From contig OZ316899.1 of assembly GCA_973895155.1 (NCBI GenBank), positions 7,195,241-7,259,240 of the forward strand: a stretch of DNA of 64,000 nucleotides, read 5' to 3'. Shown piece after piece: positions 12,959 through 63,267 of the stretch. This stretch comes from Marsupella aquatica. Its lineage: Eukaryota > Plantae > Marchantiophyta. Numbering within the stretch: position 1 is the stretch's first letter; each line of letters starts with the position of its first letter. The notes below the pieces were generated by a model. The model did no database searches. It was given only the letters and a program-made list of their open reading frames with translations, and was not told where the DNA came from. The translations under genes were made by a program, and so were the position numbers.

Positions 12959-12978
12959 CGGGGCACTCCATCCGGATC

Positions 12979-13196: not shown

Positions 13197-13539
13197 AACA
13201 TTTGAGTTCCACAGAACAGAGCGGAACTCACAGAACAAAACTCAACAGATATCAATAGACAACCGCCAACCTCAATGAGCTGAGGCTCAAGTCTTAAGTA
13301 GCATCGGAAACCCAACCATCCAGCCTGAGCCAGCTGCCATCAGCGAGGCTCATCCAAACTCCAAGCCTGGTGACTCACCCAAACACCAAACCTGGTGACG
13401 GCGAGTCATCCAATCACCAAACCTCAATCCATCCAACCAAGCAGCCCCTCCGAGTCAGCATGCATGCAACCCAACCGGGAGGCCTCGCCCATCATTCCCT
13501 ATAAAAGCCATTCCTGAGCCAAAATCTTTTGGCACGACA
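13197..13539 (-). repeat. Partial 5' LTR of element X
   Basis: High similarity to 10558-10900; ends CACGACA. Confidence 0.85.
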
Positions 13540-25936: not shown

Positions 25937-26646
25937 TAGTTTTTGGTTAGTTAGCATCCAGATCTAGTTAGGATCAAAATCCGGATTTTTGTTGTAGACC
26001 CGGAAATCCATTTCCAGAAATTTGCCTTGGATTCATTTTCGGATTTTCCTTTGTTGCCACTCCCGGATTTTGATTGACAGTTACTTTTTCTCCCATGAAA
26101 ACCGGAAGTGACACTTTGTGACTTTTGGGATCCTTCCTTTGTGCATCTAAGGAGGAACACAGATCCATTTCCCTCAGTTCTTAGTTTTTGTTGGAAGCAT
26201 AGAAGCTCCTCCTTAGGTGCTCCTGTTGAGCCTTGACCTGTTGTGAGTAGAACTGCAGACTCCTTCTCCTGTTGAGAAGTTAATATTTAGAAAATTTGCC
26301 ATCATACTTTGAAGTTGGATTTTGATTTGAATTACTCATATGGATTCTAGGTAGCATTGAACTCCTGCTGTTTCAGTAGTCGAAATGGAATGTTTCCTTT
26401 TCATGAGTAATTATCTAAATTTGATTGAGAAGTTATCAATTCGACAATCTAGAAATTCTTATGTGTGAGAAGATACCAATTCAAGCATTCTAGTACCGTC
26501 ACCACTTGTTGACCAGAAAGAATTCTTGTTTTAATAACTAGATCTCCATGTAAATTTCTAGTTGATGTTTGATGTTTATTCTAATTTGACCATGTTATGA
26601 GCTTTGTTGCATTCTGAATCTTAAAAATCCAGGATCCTGTTGATTC

Positions 26647-29600: not shown

Positions 29601-32433
29601 CCAAGTTTGGATCGATGTGGCCCAAGGATGGGTACCATCACTTTACATCCGAATACTCTAATGTGTGAAAGGTCAGGGGGTAAACCGAATGCAAGGTGAT
29701 GAGGGGTTTTAGTATTAAATGCTGACGGCCGATACTTAAGCAAAGTTGTTGCATGGAGGACAGCGTGTCCCCATGCTGAAGGTGGTAGTTTAGAGTTCAA
29801 TAGAAGTGGCCTTGTTATCATTTGAATCCTTTTTATGACTGACTTTGCTATGCCGTTCTGGAAATGGACGTAAGGAACTGAGTATTCAATGTCGATCCCC
29901 GCTGTCATACAGAAGTCGTCAAATGCTCTGGAGGTAAATTCCCCTGCCCCGTCCACTCGCAATTTCTTAATTGGACAATCTGGGAATTGTACTCGAAGTT
30001 TTAATAAGTTGGCTAAGATTCTGGCAAAGACCAGGTTACGAGTAGAAATTAATGAAACGTGGAGCCATTTAGTTGAAGAGTCTACAATGGCTAAAAAATA
30101 TCTGAAAGGCCCACTTGGAGGGTGTATTGGCCCGCAGACATCAGCATTTAGACGTTCCAGGAATTTAGGGATAGTATAGATGGTCTTTTGTGTAGCTGGG
30201 CGTGTACTCAGCTTCCCCTGAGAACATGCAAGACATTGCTTATGATTTATAGATGGACGCACTCCTTTAGGGATTCCTCGTGAGTCCTTGATGATGCGAC
30301 GGTACATATTTATTCCCGGGTGCCCCAGTCGACAGTGCCAGAGGTATGTAAGATTATTTGATTCTGCTGTGGCATAGTTCGCTGTTATTGGGGCTGCATA
30401 TAAACCCGGGGGTATTAGAGGTAGTATCTCTTTGATTTGAATTCCATCTGTGGTCATGGCTACTATTTGCAAAGTAGGTTTCTGCTGGATCATTGCTGTG
30501 CGGAGTTGATAATTATTAGCAACAACGTCTTTGAAGCTAATCAAATTTCGAGTAGCTTTTGGTGCAAAGATAGCTGCTTCGATGTTAATGACTGTTCCTT
30601 GGGGAAATTTGACAGTAGCCTTTCCTGTTCCTTCCTCAATCTTATTCGTACCTGATATGGTTGTCATTATCCTGGCAGATGGAGTGATATCTTGGAAATA
30701 ACTCCTATCTTTTAGGATAGTGTGGGATGTCCCACTATCAATGATACCTAAATTGGGATCGTTGGAGGAGGGATATGGTGGCTCTTCTGTCACCAGATGA
30801 GCTTCAGCGTTGGATTGGTCTATCGTATCATTTTCTTCTCGATAAGATGGTAGCTCCTCTTCCAATTCCATATAGTTGCCATCTGGATTTTGCTTTAACT
30901 TAGCTCTTGCTTCTGAGTGCCTCTTAGCCGCTTGGTCAGAAGCCCAGCAGTCTTTCTTTAGGTGGCCAATTTTTCCACATCTATAACACATTCGGTCTTC
31001 TCGTGTGTTGTCAGATGATTGGGCGTGACCTCTGCCGCGTCCTCTTCCTCTACCCCGGCCACGGCTTCTGCTGCCTTGACCTCTGGTATTTTCATACTGA
31101 TTTCCCCTTCCACTATAATTTGAGTTGCGACCTCGTCCTCTATATCCACCTCTTTGTGTACCCCGGCCTCTTATATTTCGTTGTTGGTCTTCTGGGGCAT
31201 TGTAATTAATTTCTGGTTTCTGTGGTATAGGTGCAGTGCCTGGTGGTCGTTTCCTTGCATTCTGTATAGAGACAATTTGTTGTTTCTCCTCTACTAGGAG
31301 ATGTGCAATTAAGTTAGAATAAGTTGTGAATTGCATATTCCTGTATTGAGTTCCCAAGGCGATGTTGGCCTCTGGGAAAGTACTCAACGTTTTATCGATT
31401 TTGTCTAAGTCTGCAACTGGGTGGCCACACATCTCCAATTGAGATGTAATACGAAATAGAGAACTATTATAATTTGCTATAGAAGTATGATCCATGACAC
31501 GTAGATTAAACCAATCCCTGCGGGCTTCTGGGAGCCAGACCTCTCGCATATGGTCAAATCGAGCTTTTAATTTGTCCCATAATAGACGGGGATTAAGATC
31601 ACTCATATATTGTGTCTTCAGTGATGGTGTCAAATGCTGTCTAAGTAGAAATACAACTTTGGCCTTCTGTTGCAATGTTAAATTGTCATCAGTAATTAAT
31701 GTATCCTCTAGTTGTATTGATGCGAAGTAGGTCTCTACATCTATTGACCAGGTTAAGTAATTATTGCCATCTGCCAATAGGGCTGGAAAGTGTAATTTCT
31801 CCAGGGTGGCCATAGTATCTCAAATCTGTAACAAATCACTGTCCGCGTTCTGATTAATATCAAATCTATGTCGTTCTCAATTACTTCAATCACTCGTGCC
31901 TTTTTATCCACGGGATTTTCCTTGGCGATAAAAGAAACTCAGGATTTCCGTGGCGGAACAATAAGATATAAAAAAAATTGAGTCGAATTTGAACGGGAAA
32001 ACACTATTTCAAAGTGATTCATGCCTCTCCGATAGTGTCACTAATCAATTATATACGGATTGTGTGTTTTCCGTAAGGATTCGTGGACTATTCAGAGGAT
32101 CCGAAGTTTAAATTATGGTGTGATTTGAATCGGTGGCAGTTACTGATGTGGGGTGGGGCTAAAAACGCAACATTGGAAGTCAATTTCTTTGTCTGAAAGC
32201 CGTACTCCAATTATCCTACCTTAACTCCAAACTGTAAAAAAAAATTTAGATGCTATCGCGCTGATAACGTGTTGTGTGACAATGGAGAGACTTGCAACTC
32301 GCTATTGTGTTCCATTATGGGTGTGACTTATATAGTCACCATAGGGTTACATGTTGGGGTTGGTGTTAACCCATGTTACCCCTTCAGGATAGGGTTAGGG
32401 GTTAACCATGGTCTAGAGTAAATGGTTACAACA
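26647..32433 (-). mobile_element. Ty1/Copia LTR retrotransposon, Bianca-like, full length
   Basis: Apparently identical 164-bp LTRs at 26647-26810 and 32270-32433 (TG..CA); 5-bp TSD GATTC; PPT CAAGGGGAAG; PBS CGTTATCAGCGCG. Confidence 0.97.
27173..31813 (-). CDS. Copia gag-pol polyprotein, 1546 aa, uninterrupted
   Basis: CYRCGKIGHLKKDC knuckle, DSGTSH protease, WHCRLGHP, integrase, YVDD RT, GYADAG RNase H. The N-terminus and FLERLNADVCGPIHPPSGPFRYF are Bianca-like. Confidence 0.97.
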   Translation of the reverse strand: MATLEKLHFPALLADGNNYLTWSIDVETYFASIQLEDTLITDDNLTLQQKAKVVFLLRQHLTPSLKTQYMSDLNPRLLWDKLKARFDHMREVWLPEARRDWFNLRVMDHTSIANYNSSLFRITSQLEMCGHPVADLDKIDKTLSTFPEANIALGTQYRNMQFTTYSNLIAHLLVEEKQQIVSIQNARKRPPGTAPIPQKPEINYNAPEDQQRNIRGRGTQRGGYRGRGRNSNYSGRGNQYENTRGQGSRSRGRGRGRGRGRGHAQSSDNTREDRMCYRCGKIGHLKKDCWASDQAAKRHSEARAKLKQNPDGNYMELEEELPSYREENDTIDQSNAEAHLVTEEPPYPSSNDPNLGIIDSGTSHTILKDRSYFQDITPSARIMTTISGTNKIEEGTGKATVKFPQGTVINIEAAIFAPKATRNLISFKDVVANNYQLRTAMIQQKPTLQIVAMTTDGIQIKEILPLIPPGLYAAPITANYATAESNNLTYLWHCRLGHPGINMYRRIIKDSRGIPKGVRPSINHKQCLACSQGKLSTRPATQKTIYTIPKFLERLNADVCGPIHPPSGPFRYFLAIVDSSTKWLHVSLISTRNLVFARILANLLKLRVQFPDCPIKKLRVDGAGEFTSRAFDDFCMTAGIDIEYSVPYVHFQNGIAKSVIKRIQMITRPLLLNSKLPPSAWGHAVLHATTLLKYRPSAFNTKTPHHLAFGLPPDLSHIRVFGCKVMVPILGPHRSKLGPQRREGIYIGHDSSSLIRYLEPSTADVFKARHADCHFYEEIFPSLLKAPTTSHDITPVQLNWNSRNLLNQDPRTQSADEEVRRLLHLHEMLEKIPDAFNDAANVTRSHVEAVNTPARIQLLPTQAKETLPKAKRGRPLGSTDSRPRQRRTQTVNTETTFNLVSIEPEKKRAPDNEEMSIQYTHTGHIYARSNTIIDEQFAYHIAQSISNDTPDPYTIKEAQKRPDWPQWREAINTEMDALIKRQVFGPVKVVQPKNDYTDSRFIFVRKRNAQGDVIRYRARLVAKGYTQIPGRDYDLTYSPVMDVTTFRYLISFSRKHKLKNILMDVVTAYLYGVLDSEIYMKDPKELLERVVEHIQGKNIHTLSQDMKSGLRQIVPDDDIKGLVLSSGNTLKEPLQYPGKYGTGQQAFAVQVLKSINGLKQSGRIWYQTFKTKMQTLGFINDDLAPCIFIKHLAPEFVILALYVDDVNLFGTPKLLKQTINTMKGIFEMKELGEPTYCLGLQFDHLPQGMFISQSTYTKKILRQFNMQNAYSVSTPMEMRSLDTTKDMFRRRQENEPLLDADKPYLSAIGALLYLANNTRPDISFAVSLLARHSAQPTIRHWNGIKRLFRYLQGSMDMGLYFANDNPDELQGYADAGYLSDPHDSKSQTGYVFLQGNTAISWRSTKQTLTTTSSNHSEVIALYEATREALWLRNIINHIRKNTGKPLLTKPTIIHEDNKACVDQINAGYMKTDRTKHIDPKFFFTHEQIGQHINVHWKSSQENCADLFTKPLPASLHRKHVAAIGMTRLSTLRLPVDTQTRETPQFE

Positions 32434-34222: not shown

Positions 34223-35909
34223 CTCCTACTCAAGCTCCTCCATCTTGTGATTGCCTGGTCTATTCAACCATCTCCCAGCCGCCCTTATTCTTGACTCATT
34301 CCTGCCTTGTGGTAGCCTCGTCGAAGCGTTTTTACACTTAGTCGGATTTTGTTATTTTGAAAAAAATATAATTCCCCTGGCCCATATTGTACCCACCGCC
34401 AAAAATCACCCATAGGGCTAAAAGGACTTTTGAGTAGATCCATAGATTCTCTGGACATAAGGCTATGTCCTGGTTTACTAAGATCTAAACAAAACCCTAT
34501 AACCAATTTTCTAAAATTAGGTAAAGAGGGTTAATTCTTATGTTTTCCAAAATTCTTCTCAACTTTGAGATGCTCCCAAAAAGTAACCAAAGGTAACCAA
34601 GTTTTCCCACAAGTTTCCAGGTATAGAGTGGACCATATTTAACCTACTTTGCAACTTGGAACCCCTACCTTTTCCCATCAGCTATTTTTCCCGAGACCCG
34701 CTATTTGGTAACTTTAAGTTTTTCCAAAATACTTACAACTCCTAGGTTAAGACTCCACTTGACTTTGTGACTTTTATGTGTGGTCTAGGGACTACCTAGC
34801 ACCTATAGGGTGAGTCTTAGCAAAACTTATCACTCAAAAGTATCGGTCATGTCTTCGGCCTGACTTGCCGACTACCGTAACTTCTTTCTGCCCTTACCAA
34901 ATAACTTACTCAACTCTTGATACTTCTTAGAGAAACATGTCCTCTCCCTCAAATTATTTCCCTACTCTACTTCCCTAGTTATTAAGTTACCCTAAACCTA
35001 ACAACTCTGCTATCACTAAAATTATGTAATTACTACTCCTTGAAAGCAAAAAACTGACGCATTTCCTACTCAAGCCTCTACTGAGCCATTCTACACCAAT
35101 CATTTTGTTAGTCCATGAGTCATGGTTTCCCGTTGCTAAGAGACGTTTAGCTCTATCTCTCAATCCCTCTCCCTCTCTCCCCTCTGACTGCCCAAGTTTT
35201 GCACCAATTCTTCAGTGTCTAGAAAAATGTCCAGGGTGTCTGTCCTATGTCTACATTTCCAAATTAGAATGAAACTACTCTTAAGAAGACTATACTTAGT
35301 GAATCTTCTTTTCCTGTGAAGACATTAGACAAGTGTGCGTCACCTGTAATGGTTTGCATGTTGAACTTACAGGTCCAAATTGTGATTTAATTTTGCTACT
35401 GCCTGAAATTTGTATCTCTTGCCTAAGTCCCAGTTTGCTGGAGTTTTGTTGCTCTCTGTGCTTTGTTGGGCACATTGTTGTGTTTGCCTTGTTTGCTCTG
35501 ATCAGTCTTAGCCTGCTGCGGACAAGGCAGGCAATGAAACTTGTCTATTCAATTTAAAACTTCAGAACCAATGCTTTGCTGAAACTCAATTGTTATTTGT
35601 TCTGTGTTGCCCTTATAGATTTTAAAAAGGCAGGGTGAGTGACCACTATTGGATAGCAAGCGAGGGGTCTGTGCTGCATTTTCATCCTGACAACCAAGTG
35701 TAGAGTTGACTCTTTCTGAATGTTGTAGACCATTCCAATTCATTGTAGTAGCAAATGTCTTTGTACCTTGAATGCTAAATTTTACTTTTTGTGCAGTCTA
35801 CTAAAATGTATAGTCTGTACAGTCTGCTAAAATGTATTGTCTATACAGTCTGCTAAAATGTATTGTTTGTACAGCCTGCTTAATTGTATTGTCTGTCTCA
35901 TGCGTAGGC

Positions 35910-36590
35910 ATGGCACGCCCTAAAATTCAAGCAAAAAAGCGTGTGACAGAGGTGAGCAACACAGGTGTACTTGGGCCACATGCTACTAACTTCTCTGCAA
36001 GTCAGATTTTCCAAAAGGCAGCTCATTGTTATGCCATTTGCAACAATGGTGGGAGCTTGGTCATCTGTGAGGGCCCTTGCATGAGGCATTTCCACCTCAA
36101 CCCAGAGTCTGACCTTGCTGCAAAAAACAACTGTCCAGGGGTGGGCCTCCCGTCAACACACCAGGGAGACTAGATGTGCACTGATTGTTTGGAGAAGCAT
36201 GCTAAGTGTGCACAGTGTGGGAAGTTGGGGTCCTATGAGGGCTCTGTTGATGCTGCACCAGATGTTAGGAAATGTCCAGACCGTTTTTGTGTGAGGTTTT
36301 TCTGTTTTGAGTGTTTGCCTGCTCATGCCACAACTTGCCCACTTCATAGGTGTAAGGCATGTGGTGAGCATGATGATGAGTACTGGGCTGACATAGTCCA
36401 CTGTGCTAGATGCCCCACTATGTGGCACTATCATTGCTTGAAAGATCGTCAAGCAGAGGGTTATGCTTGTGACAGAGAAATCTGTGATCACTGTGCACAT
36501 GGTGTTGATCGATGGATATTTTATTGTCATCGCCATGCCATAGATCCTACTTTGCACACCCCTATCAGAGATCACATTTCTTGGCTTTGA
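35910..36590 (+). pseudogene. EDM2-like composite PHD-finger module (one in-frame stop)
   Basis: AICNNGG..CEGPCMRHFH..C.DC..CAQCGKLGS..CPLHRCKAC..CARCPTMWHYHCL..RWIFYCHRHAIDPTLHTPIRDHI follows the EDM2 PHD region as I recall it (..IYC..HEID..L.TP.RDH). TAG 36171-36173 is in frame. Confidence 0.8.
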
Positions 36591-37273
36591 ACCTAAATAA
36601 TGTACATGCATAGTGCACCTGATGTGGATGTACTCCTTGGAGATTGCAGACATTCCAATTTTGAGAAGAAGGACCTCTGTAGGAGAGGATGCTTAGGCAA
36701 CAATTACCCTAAGTTCATTACTTGTTCCTGGGTACATGCCTTCAAAAACTCCCCTTAAGCCTTCTAGGAACTTTTTTAACTCTGCAATCATTTTGATAAT
36801 GACTTACATGACACTGCTTAAAGTAAATCAGGACTTCTCATTATGAACATATAAGTTAGAAGGCTATTTAATTTGCAAGAATTCCCTTAAAGTGTACCAA
36901 CATTTTGTATTCTGATTGAATGTCCGCCCATTTCCAACATTTGTATGTGGCATCACAAAACAATTGCACTTGTTTTCACCTTCACCATTGTGAAGTCATA
37001 GATTCAAACTATGAGGTGCATCCTTGCAGGTGTCTAGTACGTTTGTCCCATTATTTCTCCAGTTTGGAATCGGAGCAAATACTCACAACAGGACTGGACT
37101 AGACCAACTTAAAAAGGCAGCATTTTAGGGGCCCTCCAATTATCAGGTGAACACATTATCTTCCGGTCTGCAGTGATTAGGTGGGGTGTGTGTACATGGC
37201 CTCTAGGAAACGTACAAAGGTTGACCACCCGCCTCTATTGGCTGGAATCAAAGCCATTTTGATTCCTGGCCAC

Positions 37274-37954
37274 TATGGGTTCACCCAAGTGAGTTGGCCA
37301 ATCGTACAAAAATGATTCTTAGAGTTCCATGGGACTGAAGTCAAGGACATCACTCCACAAACTACACATGTTGTTGCAGGGACATGGCTGGATGTGATGA
37401 ACAAGTGGTCATGGTCCTTCATTGATTCTGCTATTACCAACCAAGGTCTAAAAGTAGTTGAAGTCTCTTGGCTTACCAATTTTGTTAGACATAGGTGTGT
37501 ACAGGGTACTGAGCAATATGAGTTGTGGGAGAGTGAGGAGGCCACTACAGAGGCTTTGGCTGAAAAGGAAGAGTATGAATCAGTGGCAAACAAACCCAAG
37601 CTTGCTTTTGTCCAAAATGGACCTGTTGTCAAAATAGGACACCATCCTATGGTTGTTGATGCTATATTGAATGAGCAGGGCAAGGAGAGAAATAGCATTA
37701 TGAAGGGGTTCAGTGTGGTATTTGCAGAAGAGGGAATTGGGGAGACTAAGTGCAGACTGTACAAGTCCATAGTTGTTGAGCTAGGTGGGACAGTGGAGAC
37801 GAGTCTAACAGAAACCTCCACTCATGTTGTAGGTCTGTCATACATGAAAATATGCAGAAAATGCTTTAAGACAATAGTGCATCATTTTGTCATGAACAAC
37901 AATCTTTGGGTGCTTTCCCTTGATTGGCTTCAACAAACACCCTCAAACATTTAG
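37274..37954 (+). pseudogene. Tandem BRCT-domain ORF
   Basis: Two repeats: FHGTEVKDITPQTTHVV..VVEVSWLTN and KGFSVVF..LGGTVETSLTETSTHVV..VLSLDWL; stops in the first repeat. Confidence 0.65.
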
Positions 37955-48194: not shown

Positions 48195-48868
48195 TGCGTA
48201 GTAGCCTCCTTAACTAGGTGGAGATGAATAGAAGAAACATTCATGTCCACCCTTGAAGTCTTTCCACCATTGCTTTGCCAATACACACGGAGACAACCAC
48301 TACACCTTACTTACTTTTAGAAATTCTTTCTTGTTAAACATCATAATAACACCAACTGTTTTACTCATCCAATTCCTTCATATACATAATTGGTTGTCTA
48401 GGTGGTTGGTTGTATAACCGTCATGGGTTAGGGGTTTAGTCCTAACCTTAGGTAGACTTGTTCTAGGGGTTGCAACACTCCCCCTTGGATACATCTTTGT
48501 TATAGAAAAGATGTAGACATTTAAAGTCTACCTTGACTATCTATTGGGAAATTGAGTGGTCTTCTAGTTTATTGTATGGTAGGGGTATAATATGGTAAAA
48601 AAGGTGGGGTGTAACCTCATTAAAACCTCCCCTCCTTTCTTGTGGGAGGAAAGAGCGTTACCACCCGTCCCTTAGTTGAGTCGGGTTTGTCTAAGTAAGT
48701 GTAAATGTATAAAATTGTCTTAACCTAAAGGTTATTGGAAATTGTTTGGTAGTGTAAGGTGAGTCGTAGTTTGTAGAGTTGTCGTTGCGGTCGATCAGGT
48801 TGATGCTATGTTGTAGTGGTTTTGGTTGTCACGGAGGTGCTGCATCGATCGTCTTCGTGCATGGTATT

Positions 48869-51800
48869 TGTGATGCCTAGCCAGGAATCACTGGGCTAGT
48901 TTAAGGGGAAAAGGGAAGTGTACCCTAGAAACGCCTTAGTATAGTTACATAAATAAGGAAAATATAAACAATTAATGGTGACTATGGAACCCGAGCCGAG
49001 GCTGGAAGTAAGGACGCCAGGGGAGAGAACACGATTAGGGTTAGGGCACGCTAAGTGCCGGCGGCTAGGGGTAACCAACGGGAGGGAGAACTAGAGGAGG
49101 AGAGGGGTAAGGACCGCTTGCGAGGAATAGTAGCTCATTTGCAAGCACGAACTGAGCAGGCGACTACGGGCGGCCAACTACTGTCAACTGCTTAGGCAAG
49201 CGCTCAGCGTGGGAACAGATACCGACTATCAACTCGAGAAGGGTATGAGCAACGTCAATCAAGCGGCACATTTTTGGGGATGCCTGTTCGAACGGGCAAT
49301 TGAGTACATTGGGACTTACGAGGATGCAGAATCGGAGAGAGCAACTCGAGAACGGTTGGAGCTCGCCCGATTGTGGGAGCTGCAAAAAGCTGCCTTCTTA
49401 GGAGGAGAACTCATCAAGGCTGAATTCCTGTGGACGCCTACTGGCAACGAGCTAGACGACCTGCTGTTTTGCGAAGACAGAGTCATCGGCATCCGAGAAG
49501 CCATCAAACGCTGCAACGACATACACTGGGAGTTGAAGGGTAGCACGGAGGGGTGGACAAAGGCAACCGTGCTAGGAGAGACATCCATGACAGCCGAGAT
49601 GAAGAGGAAGGGGAACAACAACGAAGAGGCCACCCCGGCAAAAAGAACGCGGTCGGCGGCACCAAAGAAGCCAGCAGAACAACAGAGCAGGAGGCAAAGA
49701 GAAGCCGAGGAGGAGGAGGTCGACCCCATCAATGCCATTCCAACAAATGATGACACCTGGAAAGGCTGGGCAGTGACCCTACCGGAGGAAGTGCAATTAC
49801 ACTTTGCACGGGAGGAGGATGCATGCTTTACAGCCATGCAGACCAAGAAGTACCAAGGCTTCATGGCCGGATCCGGCTTGGAAGCCTTCGTAAGATTACC
49901 ATGGCTGAAGCCGGAGGTGCTGGACTCAGACTTGTTAGAATTCGTGGGATCATGGGAACCCGAGACCAATTCCACGAGGGTGTATGGGAAGGATTTCTAT
50001 CTCACTCCCCGGGTGATTGTTGAAGTGTTTGGCTTGCCGATGGGTAATAAGACCAAGGTTGATACCAGGAAGACCTTACCTGACAAGGAGTTTTGGTCAT
50101 TCCCAGGACCATCAACAAAGAATGGCTTCTTCCGGAACACCTGCACCAACCCACACATCGGAGAGATGATCAATTTCTTGCGGGTGACCATGCACTGTAA
50201 CTTGCCGAGGGCAGAGATCGGCAAGGCTCAGGTCTACCTGGCAGAAAGGCCAGACCCAAGCCGGGATTACAATGGGTACCTCCTCAACCAACTGAAGAAG
50301 ATCTTGAAGGAGGAACAATAGGTGATCGGCGTGGGAAGCGTGTCCCGGCTTGGCTATCACATGCCGCTATTGTGCCGGTGCCAGAAGTCAAATCTTTGCC
50401 CCAGTACTTCCCCTATCGACAAGAGCACTAGAGGAGGTCCCGGAGCAGAGGCCGGCACCAGAGAAGCCCAACCAGCCCGATAGTCCGACGATCGAGCAGG
50501 TGTGTAGACCAAGGAAAGAAGACTTGCCGATGGAGCAACCAGGCATGCAGAATCTGCTGAAATTGCTGGAGAAGGAAAGGAGAACGGTTCCGGCAACGGC
50601 AACAGAACCGGCACCGATACAGGACGCTGCCCCAGAAGCCGACCTAAGCCGGCTTACAAGGGAAAACCCCTTTACTGGAGTCAAGGAGAGAGGGAGGCCG
50701 GAACACGAGCCGGGAGTCCGGATGTATGTAGGAGCCTCAAGTCCCGAAACCGAGGAAAAGCAGGTCGTAGCTCCCAGCCACAACAAGGAGAACAAGAGAT
50801 CAACACGGAAGCCGGAGGAGGAACCAAGACCGGTGAGAGGTGAAGCCGTGTTCACAACAAAACCGGGAGAACAGCGGGAGAAGCCGGTAGTCCAAGCCGA
50901 GGAGGAGGCGGTAGAGGACTACAGCAATGATGACTCCGGCTACGGGTCGGATCATCATGTTCCAGGAGTAAGGGTAGTTCGAGGAGACCCAAGCCAGCAG
51001 AGCAGAGCAGCCCCGAGTCTCCCCCACCAGATGTCGCTCCCCCGAGCTTTGACGGCATAAAACAGACGGTGCAGGAATTTGAGGAGCGAATCAGGGAGGA
51101 AGAGGAGGCAGCCCTGGCTAGGGAAAAGGATTTACCAGGAGGAGAATGGCCAGAGGACATCAGGCGGCTTGCAGAAAAACAAAGCAACCCTCTTGCCACC
51201 GTAGAAGAAATCCGCAAGACGGCTTGGGAGCAGAGGCCGCGGTGGTTGATGCCGATGACTTCTAGTTACTCCACCTATGCTAAGGATAGAGCCATGGAGT
51301 ACGGGGAAATGTGTGGAGAGCTGGCGCTCAGCATCTTTGGGGAGGAGTTGGAGCAAGGACCCTTTTTCCAGAGGGAGATGTTGGAGAAGCGCCAATTAGA
51401 AGAAGCGGTGGCTTTGGAAAGAAGCAAGAAGGACGAGGTCATCCGTCGGCTTAGGGCAAGAGAAGACGAAATCAAAGACCTGGGGGCGGCCAAGAAAGCC
51501 CAAGATGAGCTGCGGATTAAGCGTCATGAGCTAAATATCATGCAGGGCCAATTGGATACCGCACAGTCTGATAATCGGATTATCGAGAATAAACTGACTC
51601 GAACCCAAGGAGAGTTGGCCGATGCGATCAAGGAGCGGGAGAAGTGGAAGCAAGAGCTGAGGGATGCAGAGGAGGCCCACATAACGGCCAACAACCAGGC
51701 CATGGCGGAGACCCAGAGAAGGGAAAGGGCATTGAAGGGGGAGCTTGAGGTTATCCGTGGAGCCCTTGAGAAGAAGGAGGCCGAGTTAGGGAAATCCTAT

Positions 51801-53582
51801 CAAGGGATTATTGCGCTGCAGCAGGAGCTTGCATCCCTGACGGCCAGCTTCAAAGCCGACCTGCGTGAGAAGGACAATATGCTCGATCAGACTTACGCCA
51901 AGATGAACCAGATGGAGTCTGTCATCATTGCAGAGCTCGACAAGGAGTTAAGAGCGACCCAGTAGGAGAGAGCTGCGTTTAAAAAGGAATTGGAGGAAGC
52001 CCAGAAGGAGCTGGAGGAGGCGCGCAAGGACCTGGACGAAGTGCAGGAGGAGTTGGAGGAAAGCACGCGGAAGCTAGAGAACTTACAACGACGAGCTGAC
52101 AACCAAACGGAGTGGCTGAAGAAACAAGCCGCAATATTTAAGTGCTTGGCTTCATCAGGGCCAACTCAAATTGAGGCCACTAAGTTACCAGGAGTGGTAC
52201 TGGCCAAAGGACAAACCGCACCATTTGCACCAGTGCCGGAAGTAAGTGAGAAGGGGAAGGGGCCAGCTGCCGAACCAGAAAAGAAGAAGAAACGGAAACC
52301 TTCAGGGTCAAGGAGTAATACGGCTCCACAGGCCGTGGTGACCATGGAGGTAAACCCAACACCGACCTCAGGCAGGATTACGGCAGAGGATCCAACTACC
52401 CTAGAAGGGGATGACAAAGCCAAGGCCAGGATACTCGGTAAAGCCGAGGTACCCAATCTGCCACTTAAGTGTGCAGGGGAGGCCGTAGCCGAGGCTGAGG
52501 CCGTAGCCAAGGCTGATGTTGAAGCCGATGCCGTAGCCGATGCCGGCGGTGGACCCAGTCAGGCCGATGGAGAGTTGACTCAGTCAAGGATAGGTAATCT
52601 GTCAGAGAACGAACCTACGGCAGTGGCTGAGGAGGAAGCATTGGGGGCGTCCACTGAGGGACAGACACCGCTGCCATGACGGTGGTGGAGGGCCGCTCCT
52701 TTCAAGGAGGGCGGACGTGGAGGGAGGAGGCGTGAGTGGGCAGGGCGGGCTCAGATCTCTAAGTTTAGGATTAGGATCAGGACCAGGAGGCGGCCCTGAC
52801 ACTTAGCTTAGTGGGATTGCGGTTCCACTGGTAAGAGCAACACTTGTACTCCTGCCTCGTTGTACATAGGTAGATTCAGTTAGGTAGATTAGGCTTACGC
52901 TGCAAAGAATTAGGCGGATCCACTACCAGGATAAGTACCTGGGCAGCGGGGAGCTCAGGGCCTCTTCTTTAGCAAGTTTTTAGTTGCACTAGCCGGGCTG
53001 GGATCAAGTAGTAAGAGAAGCTCTCGGTTAGTCATACAATGACCCTTGTGTATATTCATGTTTCCTCATGCCTAAGAGCTTAATAGAGTTGGCCTCACGG
53101 CTTAGTTCGCAGAGCTTGTGTATGAGATGTACTGTTTGTATGGCAAGTGCCTGGTATGACTCAGTCAGAAGGAGTCATTTTGCTATTTGTGTGTCGCATT
53201 AACTTGTGTGAAGAGTGCCCACATCAACTAATAGATGAAGGAAAGTAAGCAAGGGAGTGAGAGTTGGATGTGTTGAGCTGAGAGAGGTCTTAGCGGCTTA
53301 ACCAAGCCTATTGGGGATCATTCCGGCGGCGGAATCCAAATATACCTAACAAGAAGGAGGGAAAGACAAACGAAGGCCTAGATTAGGTCGGCTACGTATC
53401 TCATGACCCGATGAAGGATCTGTCCAGTATATGTGTGTAAAATGTTAATAGTAGTAGTAGAGGGAGGTTAGCAGCGTCCCATGCCACTAAGCCGCAAAAA
53501 CGGCCTCGCCAAGCGCGAAACCTACGGGAATCGGCTTGTGAAGGGGGTTTCTGGGGTTTAGGGAGCCATGGGACGCACCACA
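48869..53582 (+). mobile_element. 4.7-kb solo LTR of the G1/G2-like family, containing a long ORF
   Basis: Termini TGTGATGC..GCACCACA; perfect 5-bp TSD GTATT (48864-48868 and 53583-53587); no gag/pol; no terminal direct repeats. Confidence 0.9.
49245..52679 (+). pseudogene. LTR-encoded protein (~1140 aa ancestral): Transposase_32/Athila-ORF-like core, Pro/Glu linker, long coiled coil, basic NLS-like KKKKRK
   Basis: GLEAFVRLPW..EFVGSW..TRVYGKDFYLT..VFGLP parallels GFEHLASLPW..EFVKNY..TRLRG..LT..IFGL of G1; two stops and two frameshifts. Confidence 0.8.
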
Positions 53583-54279
53583 GTATTGTTGTCTGCTTTT
53601 GTGAAGTTGATTTAATCACCATATCGGTGATTCTTGAAGTCTGTGTTGGTCTTTTGGTGGATTCATTGGTGGTGCGGTGAACTGGATTGTCGATTGGTGA
53701 TGCGGGTTGTTGTAGCTGTGCTGGTCGTCTTGAGTGTAGTGCCACAATTGGATCTTCGGGGAGCAGTGTCGTCTGTCTGGGAGCTGGAGGTAAGTGCGCG
53801 CGTCCCCCTGAGTCTTGGAAGGTCTTTATGTGATTCGCTTATCCTGTGACAGTTCAGAAAGGCTACGCATTCCAAGTAACCGGATTAGTGCCTTATGTAA
53901 TACTGGAGGTAGAGATTTTGTGAAGAGGTCTGTAGCGTTCTTCGAACTCGGGATCCACTGAACGTTAATTGTATCGCCATGTTGTTCCTGTGTAAAGAAT
54001 GTTTTTGGGGAAATATGTTTTGTCTTATCACCTTTGATGAATCCTATGGAAATTTGTTCTATGCATGGTCTGTTATCTTCGTAGATGACAATAGGGGAGT
54101 TGAGTTTAGGTTTACTTGTGGTTTCTTGAAGGTAATTGATTACATTGCGTAACCAGATGCACTCGTGGCTCGCCTCATAGAGTGCAATTATTTCCGAGTG
54201 ATTTGAAGAAGTGGTGGTAAGTGTTTGTTTTGTGCTCCGCCACGAGATAGCTGTAAGTCCAATTAGAAAGATGTATCCG

Positions 54280-54618
54280 GGGGTATAGCGACGGAGACAG
54301 GAAACAGGTAAACAGGAAATTTTTTTCCTGTTTTTAATATGCTGTTACCAGGAAAAAATCATTGTTACCAGGAAAAATGACAATTTAAAAATGTCTCCTA
54401 AAATATATTATTTTCAAAAAAAATTAACAATGCAACATTTTTGGCTAGCTTTGGGCGCTACTCTTAGCAGCGCCGGGCGCTAGCAAAAAAAACTGGTCGA
54501 CCAAAATAAATTCAAAAAAAAATTTCAAAAAAAAATTTCAAAAAAATTTCAAACAAAATTTCCACCCATTTTCCTGTTACCAGTTTCTGTTATTAAATCC
54601 TGTTTCCTATTTGCTATC
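54280..54618. mobile_element. Possible MITE / DNA-transposon remnant
   Basis: Imperfect terminal IRs (TAGC..AGGAAACAGG / CCTGTTTCCT..GCTA), internal GTTACCAGGAAAAA repeats, AT-rich; no TSD. Confidence 0.4.
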
Positions 54619-54624
54619 TTTTGT

Positions 54625-56179
54625 AAACACCTCCTCCTTCTGTAAGGCCACCCTCTCCTCCTAGGTTGCCTTTAGCTCTGCGTTGAGCTCATGGACAACA
54701 TCAAACTTGATCTTATTCATTTTGTCATAGGTTTGATCGAGCATGTCATCCTTCTTCCGCAGCTCAGCTTGGAAGTTGGCCGACAGGTCCTCCAGGTCTC
54801 CCTTCAACTTGTCGATGCCCCTGTAGGTCTCATCAAGTTTGGCTTGTTTCTGATGAAGGGCCTTGCGGCATTCTTCGATCTCATCCTTTAGTGCCCGCTC
54901 CTTCCCTTGGGCCTCGGTTATGGCTCTATTGCAGGCCGTTATGTGAGTTGCCTCTGCCTTCTTCAGCTCCTGCTTCCACTTCTCCTTCTCCTTGAGGGCT
55001 TCGGCCAAGTCTTCCTTAGTCTGGGCTAGTTGCGCTTGCATGATACTTATTTCATGCTTCCTAACTTGTAGCTTGTCCTGGGCCTGCTTGGCCACCTTTA
55101 ACTCTCCGGTCTCGGCTTCCTTCTCCCTTAGCCGTCGGATGACTTCCTCCTTCTTCATCCTCTCCAAGGCCAGTGCATCCTCCAATTGGCTTTTCTCCAA
55201 CGTCTCCTTATGGATGAAGGGTCCCGTCTCCAATTCTACCCCAAAGATGTCGAGGGCGAGTAGCCCGCACATCCTCCCATACTCCAGGGCTCTGGAACGT
55301 GCATAGGTGGAGTGGTTAGGAGATGTCGGCATCTCTCAACGTGGCCTTCTGTCCCAAGCCGCCCTCCGTATCTCCTCAAACGTGGGCAAGGGCCCGGCTT
55401 GAGTCCCTGCCAGTCGCCAAATGTCCTCTGGCCATCCACCGCCTGGCAAGTCCTTCTCCTTGGCCAGGGTTGCTTCCTCTAGGTCACTGAATTGCTGTTG
55501 CAACTCGTGATTGGCCTGTTGTCTTCCGTCAAAAATTGGTGGAGGTACGTCCGGTGGGGGAGACTCAGGGCTCCCCTGCTGTTGTGGATCCCCACGCACC
55601 ACTCTTGGTAGTCTGGGGATAAAATGGCCGCAAGTCCGCACCCGTGGTACCGAGCAATCTGACCCGTAACCCAAGTCCTCATGGTATTCCTCCACATATT
55701 TCCCGGCCTCCGGCCGTCCTGGTGCCTGCTTGTCCTCTCTAGGACTAGCCGTAAACCCGGCCTCCTGCCAAGGATTATACATGCGTGCGGCTTGCCCTTC
55801 CGGCTCCCGCACCTGACTTCCGCACTCCTTTTATGGACTGGGAACCTTGGGTCCCAGTTCCTCTGATTCTTCACTCTAGGCTCCTACGTACATCCGCACC
55901 CCTGGCTTGTGCTTCGGCCTGCTTCTCTTTACGGCCCCGGCCATGGGTTCTCCTTCAGCGGTTCTTCCGGTGCCCGCTACCGCTGCCTCTGGTGCTAAAG
56001 CCGCCTTCTCTTTCTTCAGTATGTGCAGGAGGCTCTGCATGGCCGGTTGTTGCATTGGCCCGACTTCCGGCGCCTGTCGGAAGACCTGAGCTATCATGGG
56101 GCTGTCGGGCGGGTCGGGCTGCTTTGTTGTCGGCCTCGGTTCTGATTCCTCTTCTGACACTCTAGCCTGCAGGGGAAGG
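54625..56179 (-). pseudogene. Diverged paralog fragment of the LTR-encoded ORF
   Basis: GVRMYVGA, DLGYGSD, EKDLPGGGWPEDI, RALEYGRMCG..DQTYDKMN align with 50.4-52.0 kb. Confidence 0.85.
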
Positions 56180-58866
56180 ATTGGTGCTCCATAAAGAATG
56201 ACTGGTTTCACCAAAGCTCCAAAGAGATGTTTCCTTAACCTCCAAGTGTGTAGACCAGCTCTTTTGCATTTGTTCATGAATGCATAAAAAGCTCTGTACC
56301 CATTGGCAGCCCTAGATTTTACACATGAGGCCCAACTCAAGTTTTGAGAGAACTCCACCCCAAGGTATTTGTAGGTCCTCACAAATTCCACCAGATTCCC
56401 TTGGAAGTAGAGCTCTGGATTTTGTCGTGTGCCAATGCCCAAACACTTGGTCTTCTTGAGGTTGACTACCATCCCTGTTGCTTGACAAAACTCCTCCAAG
56501 GCATTGAGATGTCTTTGCAAAGCTTCTTGAGCATGAGCAAGTAGGACCACATCATCTGCAAATATAAGAAGTTGGAGGACAAACCTACCCAATTGAGTGC
56601 CAACTCCACCATGCTCCTCCAAAATGTTGTGTAGCTGATCAATGAAGATGCCAAAGAGAGTTGGTGAGAGAGGACAACCTTGGATCACCCCAAGAGTGCT
56701 CCAGATTTCTTCAGAGGTTTCCTTTGAAAGTTTGATGCGCACTTCTTGGTACAATTTAGAAACAGCCAACCTGAGCTCTTCAGGCACTTCCAACTCCACC
56801 ATCCTATCCCAAAGCTTGGATCGAGAAACTTTGTCAAAGGCCTTGGAGAAGTCCACAAACAAGCAAAATAATGGTTTATGTGGAGATTTGGCCTTTTCAC
56901 ACAACACCCTCAAGCAGAGAATGTGATCCATAGTGCTGAATTCTCTCCTAAAACCTGCTTGTGAAGGTGCCCTTTTCATCTCACTCTCCAACCAAGAGCT
57001 TAATTTGGCTTCAAGTAGTCCTCCCAAAACTTTAGCAAAAGTATTGCCTACCATGATGGTTCTGTAGTTGTGCACATCGTCCTTGTTGCCTGCCTTGAAG
57101 ATAGGCACCACTCTTCTGGTCATCCAAGCTTTAGGTAAACCTAAAGCCATTGCTTGATTCAGCTCATGCACCAAGTTTGTTAGTAAAGAGGGTCCTCCCC
57201 ACAAAAGAAGCTCCAAGTTCAGGCCCAACAGATCTTTAGCTTTCCCATGTTGCATGTGGGAAAGATGCACCTTCACCTCCCTCTCTGTAAACTGAATGGT
57301 GTCCCCAAGGGGCAAAGGCATGCCACTAGCATCTGGAAAGAAATACAAGGATGTGACATAGGTTACCAGGTCCTGGTGATCCAAGGGGGGAGTAGTCTTG
57401 CCTGATTGCATTCTCTCCCAAAAACGTTTTGGATGTTTGATGAACTCCTCACATAGTGATTGTTGATGACTCTTCAAGAAGCACCTCTTCTTGTGTTTGA
57501 TGAAGTTCTTGTACATAGTGAATGCCAAAAGTCTCTTTTCCCCTGAATGTGATCTTGCTTGCATCCTTGCTCTAGCACAATCCTCGTCAAACCAAGCCTT
57601 CATGTTTTGCTTTCTAGGGGGTTTGGTGGAGAAAGTAGAGGCTGCTGCTTGTGCTATGACTTCTGAGAGCTCAATCTGATCATCCAGGGTATGGAGAAGA
57701 TGTTCAAAGTTGGCTTTGAAGATGACTTCTCTATCAGGGTCTAGAAACAGAGGTTTGGGTACTGGCTTTCTATGCACTTTGTTTGGGATTGTGGTCAGGT
57801 CAAGATGGAACAACAAAGGCAAGTGTGAAGACTCTGGTTGTTGATCAAGTATTTGAAAGTCAACCACTCTAGTGGCAGAGGTAGGTGAGGCAAGAAGGTA
57901 ATCAATGGTACTACATCCTTGTTTAGATCTAAAAGTGTAACCAGATGATTGGGGAAATCTCTCAAGCCCATTCAATATTCTTAGATTACAAGAAGCTCCC
58001 AAATGCAAAAAGTGACGTGTCATGTCATTTGTTCTGGTGTCAAGAGCCTCTCTCACCCAAGGTATCTCTTCACTACATGATGACCAAGGTAAAGTTCCTA
58101 AGTCCTCACTTTCAGTAAATTGTTCATTAGATACCCTGGCATTAAAGTCCTCCACTATCCATGTCTCCCCTAGTGGTGATATATCATGAATGACTTGGAT
58201 TAACCTATGAAATGGATAATGTGCATCAGCAATTCCCATCTTATAGACATTCATATTAAGGGGAGCAAAGTAGGTGACAATCAGAAATGATGGAGTACCT
58301 CTAGTATGAAGTCTCACCACCATGAACTGCTTGCTGGGATCTTCATGTTCAATAGAGGTGATGTGTTGAAGTTGATTCTTGGTGTAGACAGCAATGCCTC
58401 CAAACCCTCTTCCCCGTGTGGTCTTCTTCTCATTGAAGATGGATTGTATGCAAGTAAAGCCTTTAATGCTAGGTAGAGCATTTCCCTCATATTCCCAAGT
58501 CTCCGTGAAAAGCAAGATGTCAAAATTCTCAAACAAAGGTTCCCCTCCAATTGCTGTTTCTATGGAAAGTCCTGAAACATTCCATGCCATGACTCTCAAG
58601 GTCCCGATCCATCATTTAGAAACAACTCTCTTCTTATTGGTAACAACAGCTTGTCCATTGCGCAAGTAGGCTACCAATCCTTGGTCTTTGGCTACCCTCA
58701 CCTTCTCAAGCTCAATTTTCCTTGCTTGGACTTGTGTGGGAGTCAGATCATCATCCAACCAAATCCTTAGCCCTTTAAGCATGCTCCTGTTAGCCATCAC
58801 TCTAGCTTTCTCGAATTCAGCTGCAAACTTCACCAAGATTGGACGTGGAAGGTCCCCTTTGGTGAA
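56180..58866 (-). mobile_element. RTE/RTEX-like LINE copy 2: ORF1 C-terminus plus APE endonuclease-RT, 3' end deleted
   Basis: ORF1 RPILVKF..IWLDDDLT (58612-58860); EN WNVSGL/ETW/DFNAR/IDY/SHLP; RT near-identical to copy 1. Confidence 0.92.
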
Positions 58867-58869
58867 TAT

Positions 58870-61800
58870 TTCTCAACCTATTTTTCAGTGGCTCCGACAT
58901 CTCTGCTTTTAGTGACACCTTCACAAGGCTCTTGAAATATCCAGTGTCCACCATTGCACAACAATGATCCAATTCCTCATCAGTGAAATTATATTGCTGA
59001 ACTACATCACCCCAAGTTGATCCTTGCGAGAAAACCCCTTCGTACTTCTCCCGATAGAATCGAAGTATTGCCCCCTTAAGTTTCTCTGTATACTTTGCTT
59101 TTCTTGCCAATTCTGACATGGCGGGAAGATCAGTCAAAGCATGTTTTTTTTCATCAAAAGCGCCTCCCCCAAATTCACTTTGTGGAGGATTTCCAAGATG
59201 TCGGATTCTACGGCACCCTCAAAAACCCGGAATGTTGTCCCTGTCAACTGTTTTGCTTCTTTCGATTTTCCTGTCATTTGTCCGGATGAATCCAAAAGAT
59301 TACTCTTGAGCCAATTATTGCAAACCTCTCTCCATAAAGAGTAGAGCTTCTCGGGAGCAAACAAAATCCAATTGTACTCGCTGATGCTATTCACCTTTAA
59401 CGTAACTTTCGTAAGTGTTTCATACTCCTGGGAGGAAAGACCAAACAACTCAAAGTTAGCCAGCTCAAAGTTTCGAATCCCCAAATACTGGAAAGGCTCT
59501 ACACGACTCTCGCGTAGAAAGGATTTTGTTCACAACTCTCATGGAGAACCTCCCTGAAATTATGGAGATTTTCGACCCGATGGAAGTGGACGAGCTGGTC
59601 GCCCCATATCACTGTATTGCATTCTTGCATGTTTCACTTGATCAATAAATGGAGATGAAAACCAATGTGCCTCCGCCTGAAGGTTGTTCGCGTATGAAAT
59701 TTCCACAAGAACTTTCACCGGAGTTGACCCTTTGAGAATTTGCGCTCGACGATATTTGAGCAAATTGGCTGTTTGCATGAGAGATGGTTGGGTCTTTGAA
59801 CTCTGGATAATTTTCTTGGCGGCCATTGTGGAATGTTGACCACTGATGGCAAAGAACTTGAATTCCGCAAGCTTCTTGGTGTCAATGTCCTTTCCCGCAA
59901 GGTCAATTAAACTCGGTACTCCGTTGATCATCTTGTAAGGAACCAAATCTGCAGGTAAAGGTTCTTGCCCTGCATTTGTCATCATCAGTTGCGCAAGATG
60001 GTTGACATGCTCCTCATTGAGGAGTCTCTCATTCATCTTGGCAGGAGGGGGATGGATGTTTTCAACCGGGACAGAAAAAAATCTGGATATCCCAAAACAA
60101 TACCAAGACTTATTCAACTCCAATGTTTTTTCTGCAGTCTCCAGACGAGCACGGTCGACAACTAGCTTCGCGGAACTAGGGTTCTCGTCAATCTCAACAG
60201 CTTCCTGATTTTTCTTTGCTTTCTTGGGCTTGCGAACGACAGCTTGAGAGGTGATGACAGCCTGCTTCTCAACGTTTGGGGCCTTCTTCCCCACGGCTTT
60301 GACCATGGGAGTTTTCACAACAATTTTAGCCGACTCTGTGGTCGTTCCCCTTCACTTAGGAGGCTTTGCCCTTGATTCCACAACTACTGATTCAACATCA
60401 AGTTTTGCTTTTTTGTTTCCCTTTGGTGCAGGATCTTTTACGACTCCCTTTCGCTTCAGCGTCCTGATCTCCGGTTCAACCTTCTCAACTTTCTTCCTGA
60501 CCGACTCAGATTTCTGTCCAACCCGAGACTTTTGAGTCGGTTTCTCCTCCTCAGGTTTTTCTGGTGAAGCAACTTTCTTTGCTTTGCTTGATTTTCGTAT
60601 TCCTTGCGCTTCCTCGACAACTTGAATTCTCTTCCGAGAAGATGTTGCCTCTTCTTGTTTATCAATCAAAGATAAGTTTTTTCCACCTTTCACTTGAGGC
60701 ACGACTTCGCGCTGGTCAGAAACAAGAACTCTCTTTCGAGATGGTTTCTTGTCTTCTTTTTGTTCTTCCCGTTGAACCTTCTTGCGGCCTGTTTTTGCCG
60801 TAGGCGGCTCATCTGCTTGATCAACGACTCTCACTCTCTTCCGAGGTAGTTTAGCTTCTTCTTTTGTTTTCTCAAAATCAACCTTCTTCCGACCTAGTTT
60901 CCCTGATGGTGATTTTTTGTCCACTGCTTTTTTCTTCCAACTGGGTGTGGATGACTCTGACACGACACCAGCTTTCCCCTTCCTGGGCGAAACTCCCTTT
61001 GAAGTCTTTGCGTATCGCTTCTCTATTGGAGGCTTTGCTGGTGGGATGACCTCATTTTGTTGAATTTCCCCACTCTCACCATCATCGTTGGTTGGTTCAA
61101 CTGCACCTTCTAAACTTGTTGACTCTGACTCATTCTCTGACCCCGCCCGATTCTGAAAAGTCTTCTTGCTCTCTTCTTGGACACTTCCCTCCTCTCCGTC
61201 ATCCTCATTTTCTGTCTCATAGACTGATATCGTTTCATGGGACTTGCTCTCTCCAGAGGCGGACGAGTCATCCTCGGAGGAGTCATCCTCGGAGGAGTCA
61301 TCCTCGTCCTTTCCCTCCCCATCATCATCGTCAATCTCTTTTCCACCAGCTTCTTTCTTCTTTGGGCGTACCAAGTCTTGGATTACTGGATGCTCTCGAA
61401 TCCATTCCTCCACCTTTGTCTCACTGAAGTGTTTCATGAACACAACATTCGGAGAAATAGTCATCTTTCTCCTCCAGTCATCGTCTGGGATCTTCATCCG
61501 CATTATGTGATCCACCTCTCGTGTCCGAGAGATAAAATTTTCGGACTGCTTCATGACATAGGAGACCCATCCAAGCCCTAGAATTATTTCATCAGCCGTA
61601 AAGACCCGATCAGGTGACAGCCATCTATCCACTAAAGGATCAAAGAAACCGCAAGAGACAACATTTATGTCCTGGTTGTAAGGTTCAAGACAATGTGCTG
61701 AGCAAAACCCATGAAGTGGAGCAACCATCTTTGAAATTCCAAGAACTCTCACACTCCAATGTCAGCAGAAGAGATGGGTTGTCCTTTGGGGACGCAAACC

Positions 61801-61933
61801 TCGTACAGTCTGCGAGAGTGCCAAAACTCACAAAGTTTCTTCGTCCATTTTCTATTTTAACTCCCCTCACAATCAAACGGTAGTTGCCTTTGACTGGTTG
61901 CAATTCAAAAGACCATGAATTCACTGTCGCCAA
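58870..61933 (-). pseudogene. Unclassified TE-like gene: acidic and Lys-rich N-terminal half plus ParB/Srx-like domain
   Basis: 60352-61752 and 59560-60318 are in the same frame across a single TGA. Motif VPVENI.PPP..NERLLNEEHV..L...M..FFAISGQHSTMAAK. Probable intron ending TTTCCAG near 59488. Confidence 0.55.
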
Positions 61934-62125
61934 AATATTCTGAAGTTTTGCGATCGTTGGAGTTTCAATGCGAAGCCTGTCAAAACGGAAATAAACAGAG
62001 CGAACTCCTAGAAGACAAGGAGAAATATGTCAAACATCTGCACGACACTCGCGTAGAAAATAAAGTGAGCCGAAAAACTGTTGATTCATTACAAACAAAA
62101 TGATGTCAAAACATCCTTTACAAAA

Positions 62126-62227
62126 TGGCCTCTTTGGCGTGTAAACGGTCCCGCAAAAATGACTATCAGACCTCTGGCCTCTTTGGTGTGTAAATGATCC
62201 CGCAAAAAATGACTATCAGATCTCTGG
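62126..62227. repeat. ~50-bp tandem duplication
   Basis: TGGCCTCTTTGG(C/T)GTGTAAA..CCCGCAAAAATGACTATCAGA twice. Confidence 0.8.
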
Positions 62228-63267
62228 AGATAGTCGTATGAGCCATTTGAGCTCATCATCATTCGGAGTCAAAACATTGTCCAGATTTAAGAAAACAATC
62301 TGATCCGCTAGAAACATAAGAGAACCTTAACTCAAAGTATGCGAACACATGTGGCCATGAAGGCAACAATTGTTTTTTTCCAATTCAATTCATCGCACTT
62401 TGGTATCCAATTGTCTTTCCCTCTCTCGGCCATCGGCCAGCTCCTGGCGCAAGTCATGAACTTGACAATCTCGAAACTTCTCCATCTCAAGAGAAGCTTT
62501 CATGGACTTTGCCGCTACATCGCAAGTAGTCAAATGTTGGATCTGTGCCCATCGATACTTTGCAAACATCTGCTCCCGCTCGTATTCTATTGCTTCCTTT
62601 TCATCCTCCAACGCTTTTTGGAGAATGGAATTCTCCATCAAACTCATATCAAAAGCAGAAATACTTTTTTGCAACAATCCCTCAATCTTCTCAAAATCGT
62701 CCTTGCGATGAGCGCCTTCCTCTAGAAAAGTTGAAAGAACAAAGTCACATGAACAATGTTTTGATTCCAAATGGTACTACCTCCGAACGAGGATTTAACA
62801 CTCTACAGAACCTGAGTTTCTACACGACAGTCACGTAGAAATCCATTGTCTTCCAAGATTGGAGAAACGGTCTACGCGAGACTCGCGTAGAATTGAACAG
62901 GAAATTCTAAATTCTAACATAAAGGCTCTCAAATAGAGAGTATGGGTCGATGAAAGAGACCCACTCTACACGACTCTCGTGTAGAGCAGACTCAAGTTTA
63001 GCACAATCCATAGAAAATAGAGAAATGCAGGTCATAATTACCTTTGAGCTTCCTCAATGCAGCCAGAGCAAGTAAGCCGGCATCATTTTCTGCCAAAGAA
63101 GTTGTCATTGCCTTCGCACGTGCGAACTCCTCCACGACAATGTCAAGCACTGACCAGTTGAGCAAAAACAAATAGAAAACACAAATGATCCAAGGTCCGA
63201 GGCCCGAGGTCCTTTTATAGTCCGAGGCGAGCGTGAAAGAGCGTGAAACAATCTGAGGGCCGAGCGT

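Follow-up and report, generated by a model that had tools for sequence, protein, structure and literature searches.

A 4,714-bp insert in the genome of the liverwort Marsupella aquatica, at positions 48869 to 53582 of a 64,000-nucleotide window (contig OZ316899.1 of assembly GCA_973895155.1, positions 7,195,241 to 7,259,240), is likely a solo long terminal repeat (LTR), and 73% of the repeat is a decayed open reading frame (ORF) that evolved under selection. The fuller reading, for which the chances stand about even, is that the insert is a solo LTR of a high-copy, liverwort-type Gypsy family and that the gene in its 4-5 kb LTR encoded a predicted DNA-binding, anti-silencing protein for the word AAGCCG. 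A solo LTR with an internal gene had been proposed in an original prediction made from the letters of the window; it is likely because the empty target site is found, the ends are reused in other copies, and a neighboring Gypsy element (G1) has a homologous gene between its polypurine tract (PPT) and its CA end, although it is not proven. The insert is composed as follows.

48864-48868, plus strand: left 5-bp target-site duplication GTATT, from the letters and the empty site in contigs
48869-53582, plus strand: insert, likely a solo LTR of a high-copy Gypsy family, with 23 AAGCCG sites on both strands
48869-49244, plus strand: non-coding 5′ part, 376 bp; a TATA-like word lies at 48963 (the gene's likely promoter)
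49245-52679, plus strand: decayed ORF of ~1140 codons, interrupted by two stops in frame (50319, 51963) and by shifts of frame near 50380 and 50990
49257-49562, plus strand: small N-terminal domain common to outside homologs and G1, from a hidden Markov model (HMM) of three outside proteins
49803-50390, plus strand: conserved globular domain, predicted VANC21-like fold (DUF1985/PMD-like)
51366-52080, plus strand: proline-free charged heptad region, predicted coiled coil; KKKKRK follows at 52281
52680-53582, plus strand: non-coding 3′ part, 903 bp, with 4 AAGCCG sites vs. 0.37 expected, and a purine run then TG at 52733
53583-53587, plus strand: right 5-bp target-site duplication GTATT
48330-54280, minus strand: remnant of the host Copia, in two parts around the insert, with the RNase H end, the PPT and, near 48330-48480, the 3′ LTR

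Boundaries and Mobility of the Insert

The insert starts with TGTGATG and ends with CACCACA (6 of 7 letters match when the termini are inverted), and the joint chance of TG, CA and a 5-bp duplication is ~4e-6 per junction pair. It lies in the minus-strand Copia remnant, between the RNase H end and the PPT of the latter. The coordinates, the length and the perfect duplication were described correctly from the beginning, as was the lack of gag, pol and terminal direct repeats: none of 12 reading frames scanned in the insert or G1 matched a gag/pol Pfam family, and comparison of the first and last 1500 bp of the insert gave no direct repeat (best E 0.94). No family exceeded the cut-off in the antisense frames of the insert, and Rfam and tRNA scans were empty.

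Public contigs were those of Logan, from four DNA-type runs with two organism labels and from two studies. The empty Copia site is present in two of the four runs (one organism label, one study), in which 48863 is joined to 53583, 4719 letters are skipped and five letters fit either side. The summed depth per insert bin, which is not a copy number, is at least 21 to 242 times that of the flank in all bins, depending on the run. The right end is reused in all four runs: depth drops sharply there, over a few bases, and 14 to 32 contigs per run continue into unrelated flanks; 27 of the 32 pieces among those listed end exactly at 53582. The left end is reused at one further insertion (one contig, one run). 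Thus, the insert is a real mobile unit, which is settled by the Logan contigs of the four runs.

The flanks behind 53582 in other copies are mixed (agreement 0.37-0.41), and no recognizable primer-binding site (PBS) was found among them. In two runs, X1 and X2, the mixed flank cells have a common 9-letter word at the same offset, which hints that one flank recurs and may be the internal region of complete elements; this word occurs once in the window vs. 0.59 expected and is not counted as evidence. An exact 21-base scan of metagenome contigs with the right end gave no match, and subfamily-alignment scans of metagenome and viral contigs gave no confirmed locus.

A Selected Gene and Its Relatives Behind the Polypurine Tract

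The ORF path comprises 3435 bp in three pieces, whose 1136 codons include 2 stops vs. ~53 expected, in agreement with the decayed ORF of ~3.4 kb noted earlier. ATG 49245 is the likely start, because outside homologs open with a similar small domain, whose HMM detects the insert with an independent E-value (iE) of 0.004 and G1 with an iE of 8.5e-10. From the N-terminus, the encoded protein has a small domain, a linker, a globular domain of 200 residues, a second, long linker of low complexity, a predicted coiled coil of ~240 residues and the basic run KKKKRK, a possible nuclear signal; the coiled-coil scaffold envisaged originally thus fits the C-terminal part only. When compared with a paralogous fragment at 54635-56186 over 310 codons, the ORF has a ratio of nonsynonymous to synonymous substitution rates (dN/dS) of 0.19 (95% 0.11-0.29), rather than the value of about 1 that the original prediction had named as speaking against it, and third positions are the most changed; dN/dS against the G1 ORF is saturated. 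Thus, the ORF is shown to have evolved under selection. On the other hand, the gene copy in the insert is broken, so it spreads nothing today, a correction to the original suggestion that such a gene would spread a trans-acting factor.

The globular domain is predicted to fold like VANC21, with a sequence identity of 10%, and neither the insert ORF nor its homologs have a sequence match to Pfam DUF1985 or DUF287. Its Atlas neighbors are ATHILA ORF-1 and Transposase_32 at 0.90 (161 and 155 shared features, respectively); the HMMs of PF03078 and PF20167 gave no match, and PF10536 gave none. From the predicted structure, homology of the main domain to the DUF1985/PMD fold is probable. A profile search returned 57 relatives, and 20 of these were looked up; the eight with species names comprise seven proteins from Calypogeia fissa and one from Riccia sorocarpa. 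No relevant Pfam family was found in 59 homologs, word-seeded protein searches gave no match (one of them covered proteins of 1368-3905 residues only and is uninformative), a PDB sequence search with the protein gave coiled-coil noise only, and a viral fold library gave one unnamed match (E 0.0085, TM 0.34, root-mean-square deviation 14.8). An env-like membrane protein was considered and rejected, as the highest 19-residue hydropathy in the insert ORF is 0.74 and there are no transmembrane segments. Two homologs, P0043 (R. sorocarpa) and P0050, open with weak matches to DDE_Tnp_4 that stay under the cut-off, which suggests that the domain is found next to Harbinger-type transposases as well, or within fused gene models.

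Four features of the window hold or adjoin relatives of the gene:

4360-13979, plus strand: Gypsy G1 pol (protease, reverse transcriptase, RNase H, integrase), ending in a PPT, with nested elements at 7710-13539
13980-20206, plus strand: G1 terminal segment TGTGAC..GTGACA, ending inside the G2 protease
20207-26646, plus strand: Gypsy G2 pol, PPT and terminal segment from 23771, with an ORF at 24292-25710; a young Copia cuts it at 26647
54635-56186, minus strand: paralogous ORF fragment, 1.55 kb, joined to a 3′-truncated long interspersed nuclear element (LINE); 67% DNA identity to 50398-51990

In G1, the integrase is followed by the PPT, by TGTGAC at 13980 and, ~0.5 kb on, by the homologous N-terminal domain. 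The homologous ORF comprises 14474-14800 and 17286-19325, the second part holding the main domain and the coil; a CpG-poor piece of 2.1 kb separates the two, and one outside protein, P0059, has matches to either part. After the ORF, 880 bp of non-coding DNA extend to GTGACA at 20206, where the G2 protease resumes mid-gene. The layouts are alike, with 0.4-0.5 kb of 5′ and 0.9 kb of 3′ non-coding DNA in both, the insert having 376 bp, the ORF and 903 bp. A TATA at 14347 precedes the G1 ORF and poly(A)-like words at 19760 follow it; therefore, the LTR may hold a full transcription unit. The G2 ORF, 521 bp behind the PPT, is more distant: the domain HMM does not detect it, and it is linked to the insert ORF only by having the same Atlas neighbors. 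G2 pol is nearest to named Calypogeia and Riccia proteins, in line with a liverwort host.

In both G1 and G2, the PPT directly precedes the TG segment that follows the integrase, which supports by position the proposed likeness between the start of the insert and those of G1 and G2. As a motif alone, TGTGA[CT][AG]CC is weak, with four sites in the window vs. 1.8 expected; the evidence is carried by the positions, two sites following integrase and PPT, one lying at the insert junction and one (36957, minus strand) being unexplained.

In retroelements, the LTR extends from the PPT to the 3′ end and is duplicated at both ends. The ORF is counted as LTR-internal because the homologous ORF of G1 lies between the PPT and the CA end, and it is quite likely that this DNA forms the LTR at both ends and that the insert, standing alone between target duplications, is a solo LTR. 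With similarly high probability, a full element would carry two copies of the gene, and LTR recombination would leave one with promoter, terminator and binding sites. Several observations weigh against a gene inside the repeat: a purine run and TG occur at 52733 within the insert, an X2 contig joins 53582 to 52746, and the 3′ part is 1.1-3.0 times deeper than the ORF mean, whereas the 5′ end is shallower and has the lowest depth within the insert in the public contigs. They would fit a true LTR of ~850 bp from 52733, with a single ORF copy between pol and the 3′ LTR and the insert an aberrant fragment, an arrangement that also corresponds to the known layout of sense extra ORFs (PMC7264820). 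Such a fragment, however, is not expected to start with TG exactly at a 5-bp duplication. The insert has no terminal direct repeat, and its left end is reused at another site; the PPTs of G1 and G2 come directly after the integrase and ahead of the ORF, and the deepest bins of the ORF are as deep as those of the 3′ part. A purine-rich TG is also absent from the 3′ non-coding part of G1, a weak point, since the uncalibrated scan missed both real PPTs. Taken together, the short LTR is improbable.

Equally improbable is a 4.7-kb non-autonomous gene cassette with TG..CA ends that was moved by a Gypsy or other integrase-type enzyme and, in the family of the insert, never flanked gag-pol. Neither a PBS nor a PPT junction has been read for that family, and, judging by the starts of P0043 and P0050, the domain may also travel with DNA transposons. 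By contrast, a homologous gene with a matching layout occupies the post-PPT end of the pol-bearing G1, the terminal inverted repeats are only 4-7 bp, and a 5-bp duplication fits a retroelement integrase.

Further observations concern the surroundings of these elements. The A/C-rich piece that splits the G1 ORF (15000-17130) contains TCGAAA 8 times vs. 0.4 expected, and no clear target duplication was found around it. At 54635-58611 (minus strand), a LINE ORF2 without its 3′ end runs in frame into the paralog, with a 911-codon open frame at 58611-55876; the junction is considered recent because the LINE part is 99.6% identical to 8907-10307. Upstream of the LINE, at 58800-62800 (minus strand), charged low-complexity frames of 469 and 263 codons have no Pfam match. 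The Copia at 26647-32433 (minus strand) is young and intact, with one 1548-codon frame, identical 164-bp LTRs and the 5-bp duplication GATTC. The interval 35900-37954 holds a cysteine-rich frame that resembles a PHD finger and, matching PF00533 with E 6e-09, a BRCT domain; both adjoin CACTA transposase pieces and are possibly chromatin-reader cargo of a CACTA element.

Candidate Target Words and a Possible Function

AAGCCG occurs 23 times in the insert vs. 2.6 expected, a density of 4.9 per kb compared with 3.2 in the paralog and 0-1.0 in 13 other regions of the window. Within the ORF there are 19 sites, which lie on either strand and in every phase, vs. 6.3 expected from synonymous shuffles (0 of 2000); AAGCCG is the top hexamer of the ORF (z 4.9, compared with 2.8-3.0 for the Copia, LINE and paralog frames and 3.5-3.6 for G1 and G2 pol). 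In G2, ATCCGG occurs 20 times in the terminal segment vs. 1.0 expected, including 10 in the ORF vs. 3.2 (0 of 2000 shuffles), and 4 times in pol vs. 0.8 (14 of 2000). Both the terminal segment (23771-26646) and pol (20207-23770) of G2 are rich in ATCCGG/TCCGGA, with TCCGG at 15 per kb in the former, so that the post-PPT ORF of G2 and ATCCGG form a second candidate protein-word pair. Since the words are family-specific and nearly absent from the Copia, LINE and CACTA regions, a genome-wide mutation bias is disfavored.

The idea of anti-silencing gains support from the VANC21-like predicted fold and the family-specific motif load. In the proposed mechanism, the LTR promoter would transcribe the gene, and the protein would enter the nucleus, oligomerize via its coil and bind, along LTRs and pol, to the family word, in which CG and CCG methylation contexts occur; binding would keep the copies of the family from being silenced, with each full element contributing two gene copies and each solo LTR one. 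This putative combination of motif binding, coiled-coil oligomerization and relief of DNA-methylation or Polycomb silencing is a tentative proposal, to which we give somewhat less than an even chance.

A number of points weaken the case for a protein-word system. The words were chosen after the fact, by counting; G1 has the domain without a clear family word; only one of 11 aligned AAGCCG sites is intact in the paralog; and the words are dispersed on both strands and within the ORF rather than arrayed, with no tandem motif arrays in the non-coding parts of the insert. In addition, the paralog keeps CG in CCG/CGG context at 24 of 53 sites vs. 4 of 21 other CG sites. The selected, LTR-internal protein might instead act in particle assembly, nuclear import or integration targeting, while the motif load serves a host factor or reflects CpG survival. 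The absence of a clear motif from G1 and the better retention of CCG/CGG contexts agree with this, and a shared fold is no proof of function, as PMD, DUF1985 and Athila-type domains are varied in role (bioRxiv 2024.09.27.615353, in part; PMC13547354, in part). By contrast, the words differ between families of one genome (AAGCCG in the insert, ATCCGG in G2) and hardly occur in Copia, LINE and CACTA; a job of this other kind is rather unlikely.

What extra ORFs do in plant LTR retrotransposons is still to be explained (PMC7264820). Here, two families of one genome each offer a candidate protein, whose fold is predicted to bind DNA, together with a candidate target word, so that the question becomes directly testable in a tractable lineage. 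The findings also suggest that coding sequence can make up most of a plant LTR, that a solo LTR is not necessarily inert and that LTRs may carry many of the "hypothetical" genes of liverworts. If the reading is true, solo-LTR recombination, the usual route by which the host deletes retrotransposons, leaves a counter-defense gene behind. It is tempting to speculate, although the whole is doubtful, that a bryophyte Gypsy lineage built a VANC-type, sequence-specific anti-silencing system into its LTR, making every LTR an independent unit with promoter, gene, terminator and the words bound by the protein, that protein and word co-evolve in each family, that solo LTRs keep a gene protecting the family in trans, and that the extra ORFs of plant Gypsy elements (Athila ORF-1 and Transposase_32 types) belong to an old anti-silencing superfamily predating VANC.

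Comparison With Known Systems

The size of the LTR, called giant in the original prediction, is not new by itself: LTRs of ~5 kb are already known in plant non-chromoviruses, in a survey that mentions no liverwort in its main text (PMC6317226). For plant retrotransposons, no report of an ORF inside the LTR was found in the literature covered, which excludes Repbase, Steinbauerova 2011 and the supplements of PMC6317226, where cases could be held. Extra ORFs described for plant non-chromoviruses are Athila ORF-1 (PF03078), the PMD of Ogre (PF10536) and, in Retand, Transposase_28 with an Smc-like coil (PMC6317226, PMC11963269 and PMC7264820, each in part). They resemble the present ORF in that a long coiled coil comes after a globular domain of the plant-mobile type and in being kept under selection. 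However, they are internal, located before gag or between pol and the 3′ LTR (PMC7264820, PMC11963269, in part), whereas the present gene follows the PPT, lies within the terminal repeat and is retained in a solo copy; the Athila env-like position, between pol and the PPT or 3′ LTR, is not that of the G1 and G2 ORFs, which follow the PPT.

A complete ORF within an LTR, with an LTR promoter, is known from mouse mammary tumor virus (MMTV), whose sag/naf ORF lies in the U3 region (PMC9412291, in part). By contrast, MMTV is a vertebrate retrovirus and the product is an immune superantigen of unrelated sequence, while the present ORF has ~1140 codons. The PMD-C host proteins MAIN, MAIL1 and MAIL2 are reported to have a DUF1985 fold and to act via short DNA motifs against Polycomb silencing (bioRxiv 2024.09.27.615353, in part); these, however, are host genes of flowering plants, and the present protein has no PF10536 match.

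A further close parallel is the anti-silencing protein VANC21 (structures PDB 9LNJ and 9LNK), which is encoded by the VANDAL (Mutator-like) transposons of Arabidopsis and binds a short word that occurs at high density in its family (PMC5735166, in part). The likeness comprises the predicted fold of the main domain, an accessory gene of a transposon in which some parts are conserved and others variable, a coiled coil (PMC13547354) and, for the insert and G2 but not for G1, a short family-specific word enriched in the element. The differences are that VANC belongs to a VANDAL DNA transposon, whereas the present gene belongs to a retrotransposon, with no transposase in the insert and a homolog in Gypsy G1; that identity is low and the DUF1985 and DUF287 matches are absent, as described above; that VANC words form tandem arrays, whereas those of the insert are scattered over both strands and within the ORF as well; and that VANCs are described as dicot-specific (PMC13547354), whereas the named relatives here are liverwort proteins. 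Thus, if the inference holds, the protein is VANC-like in its working, but it is not a VANC.
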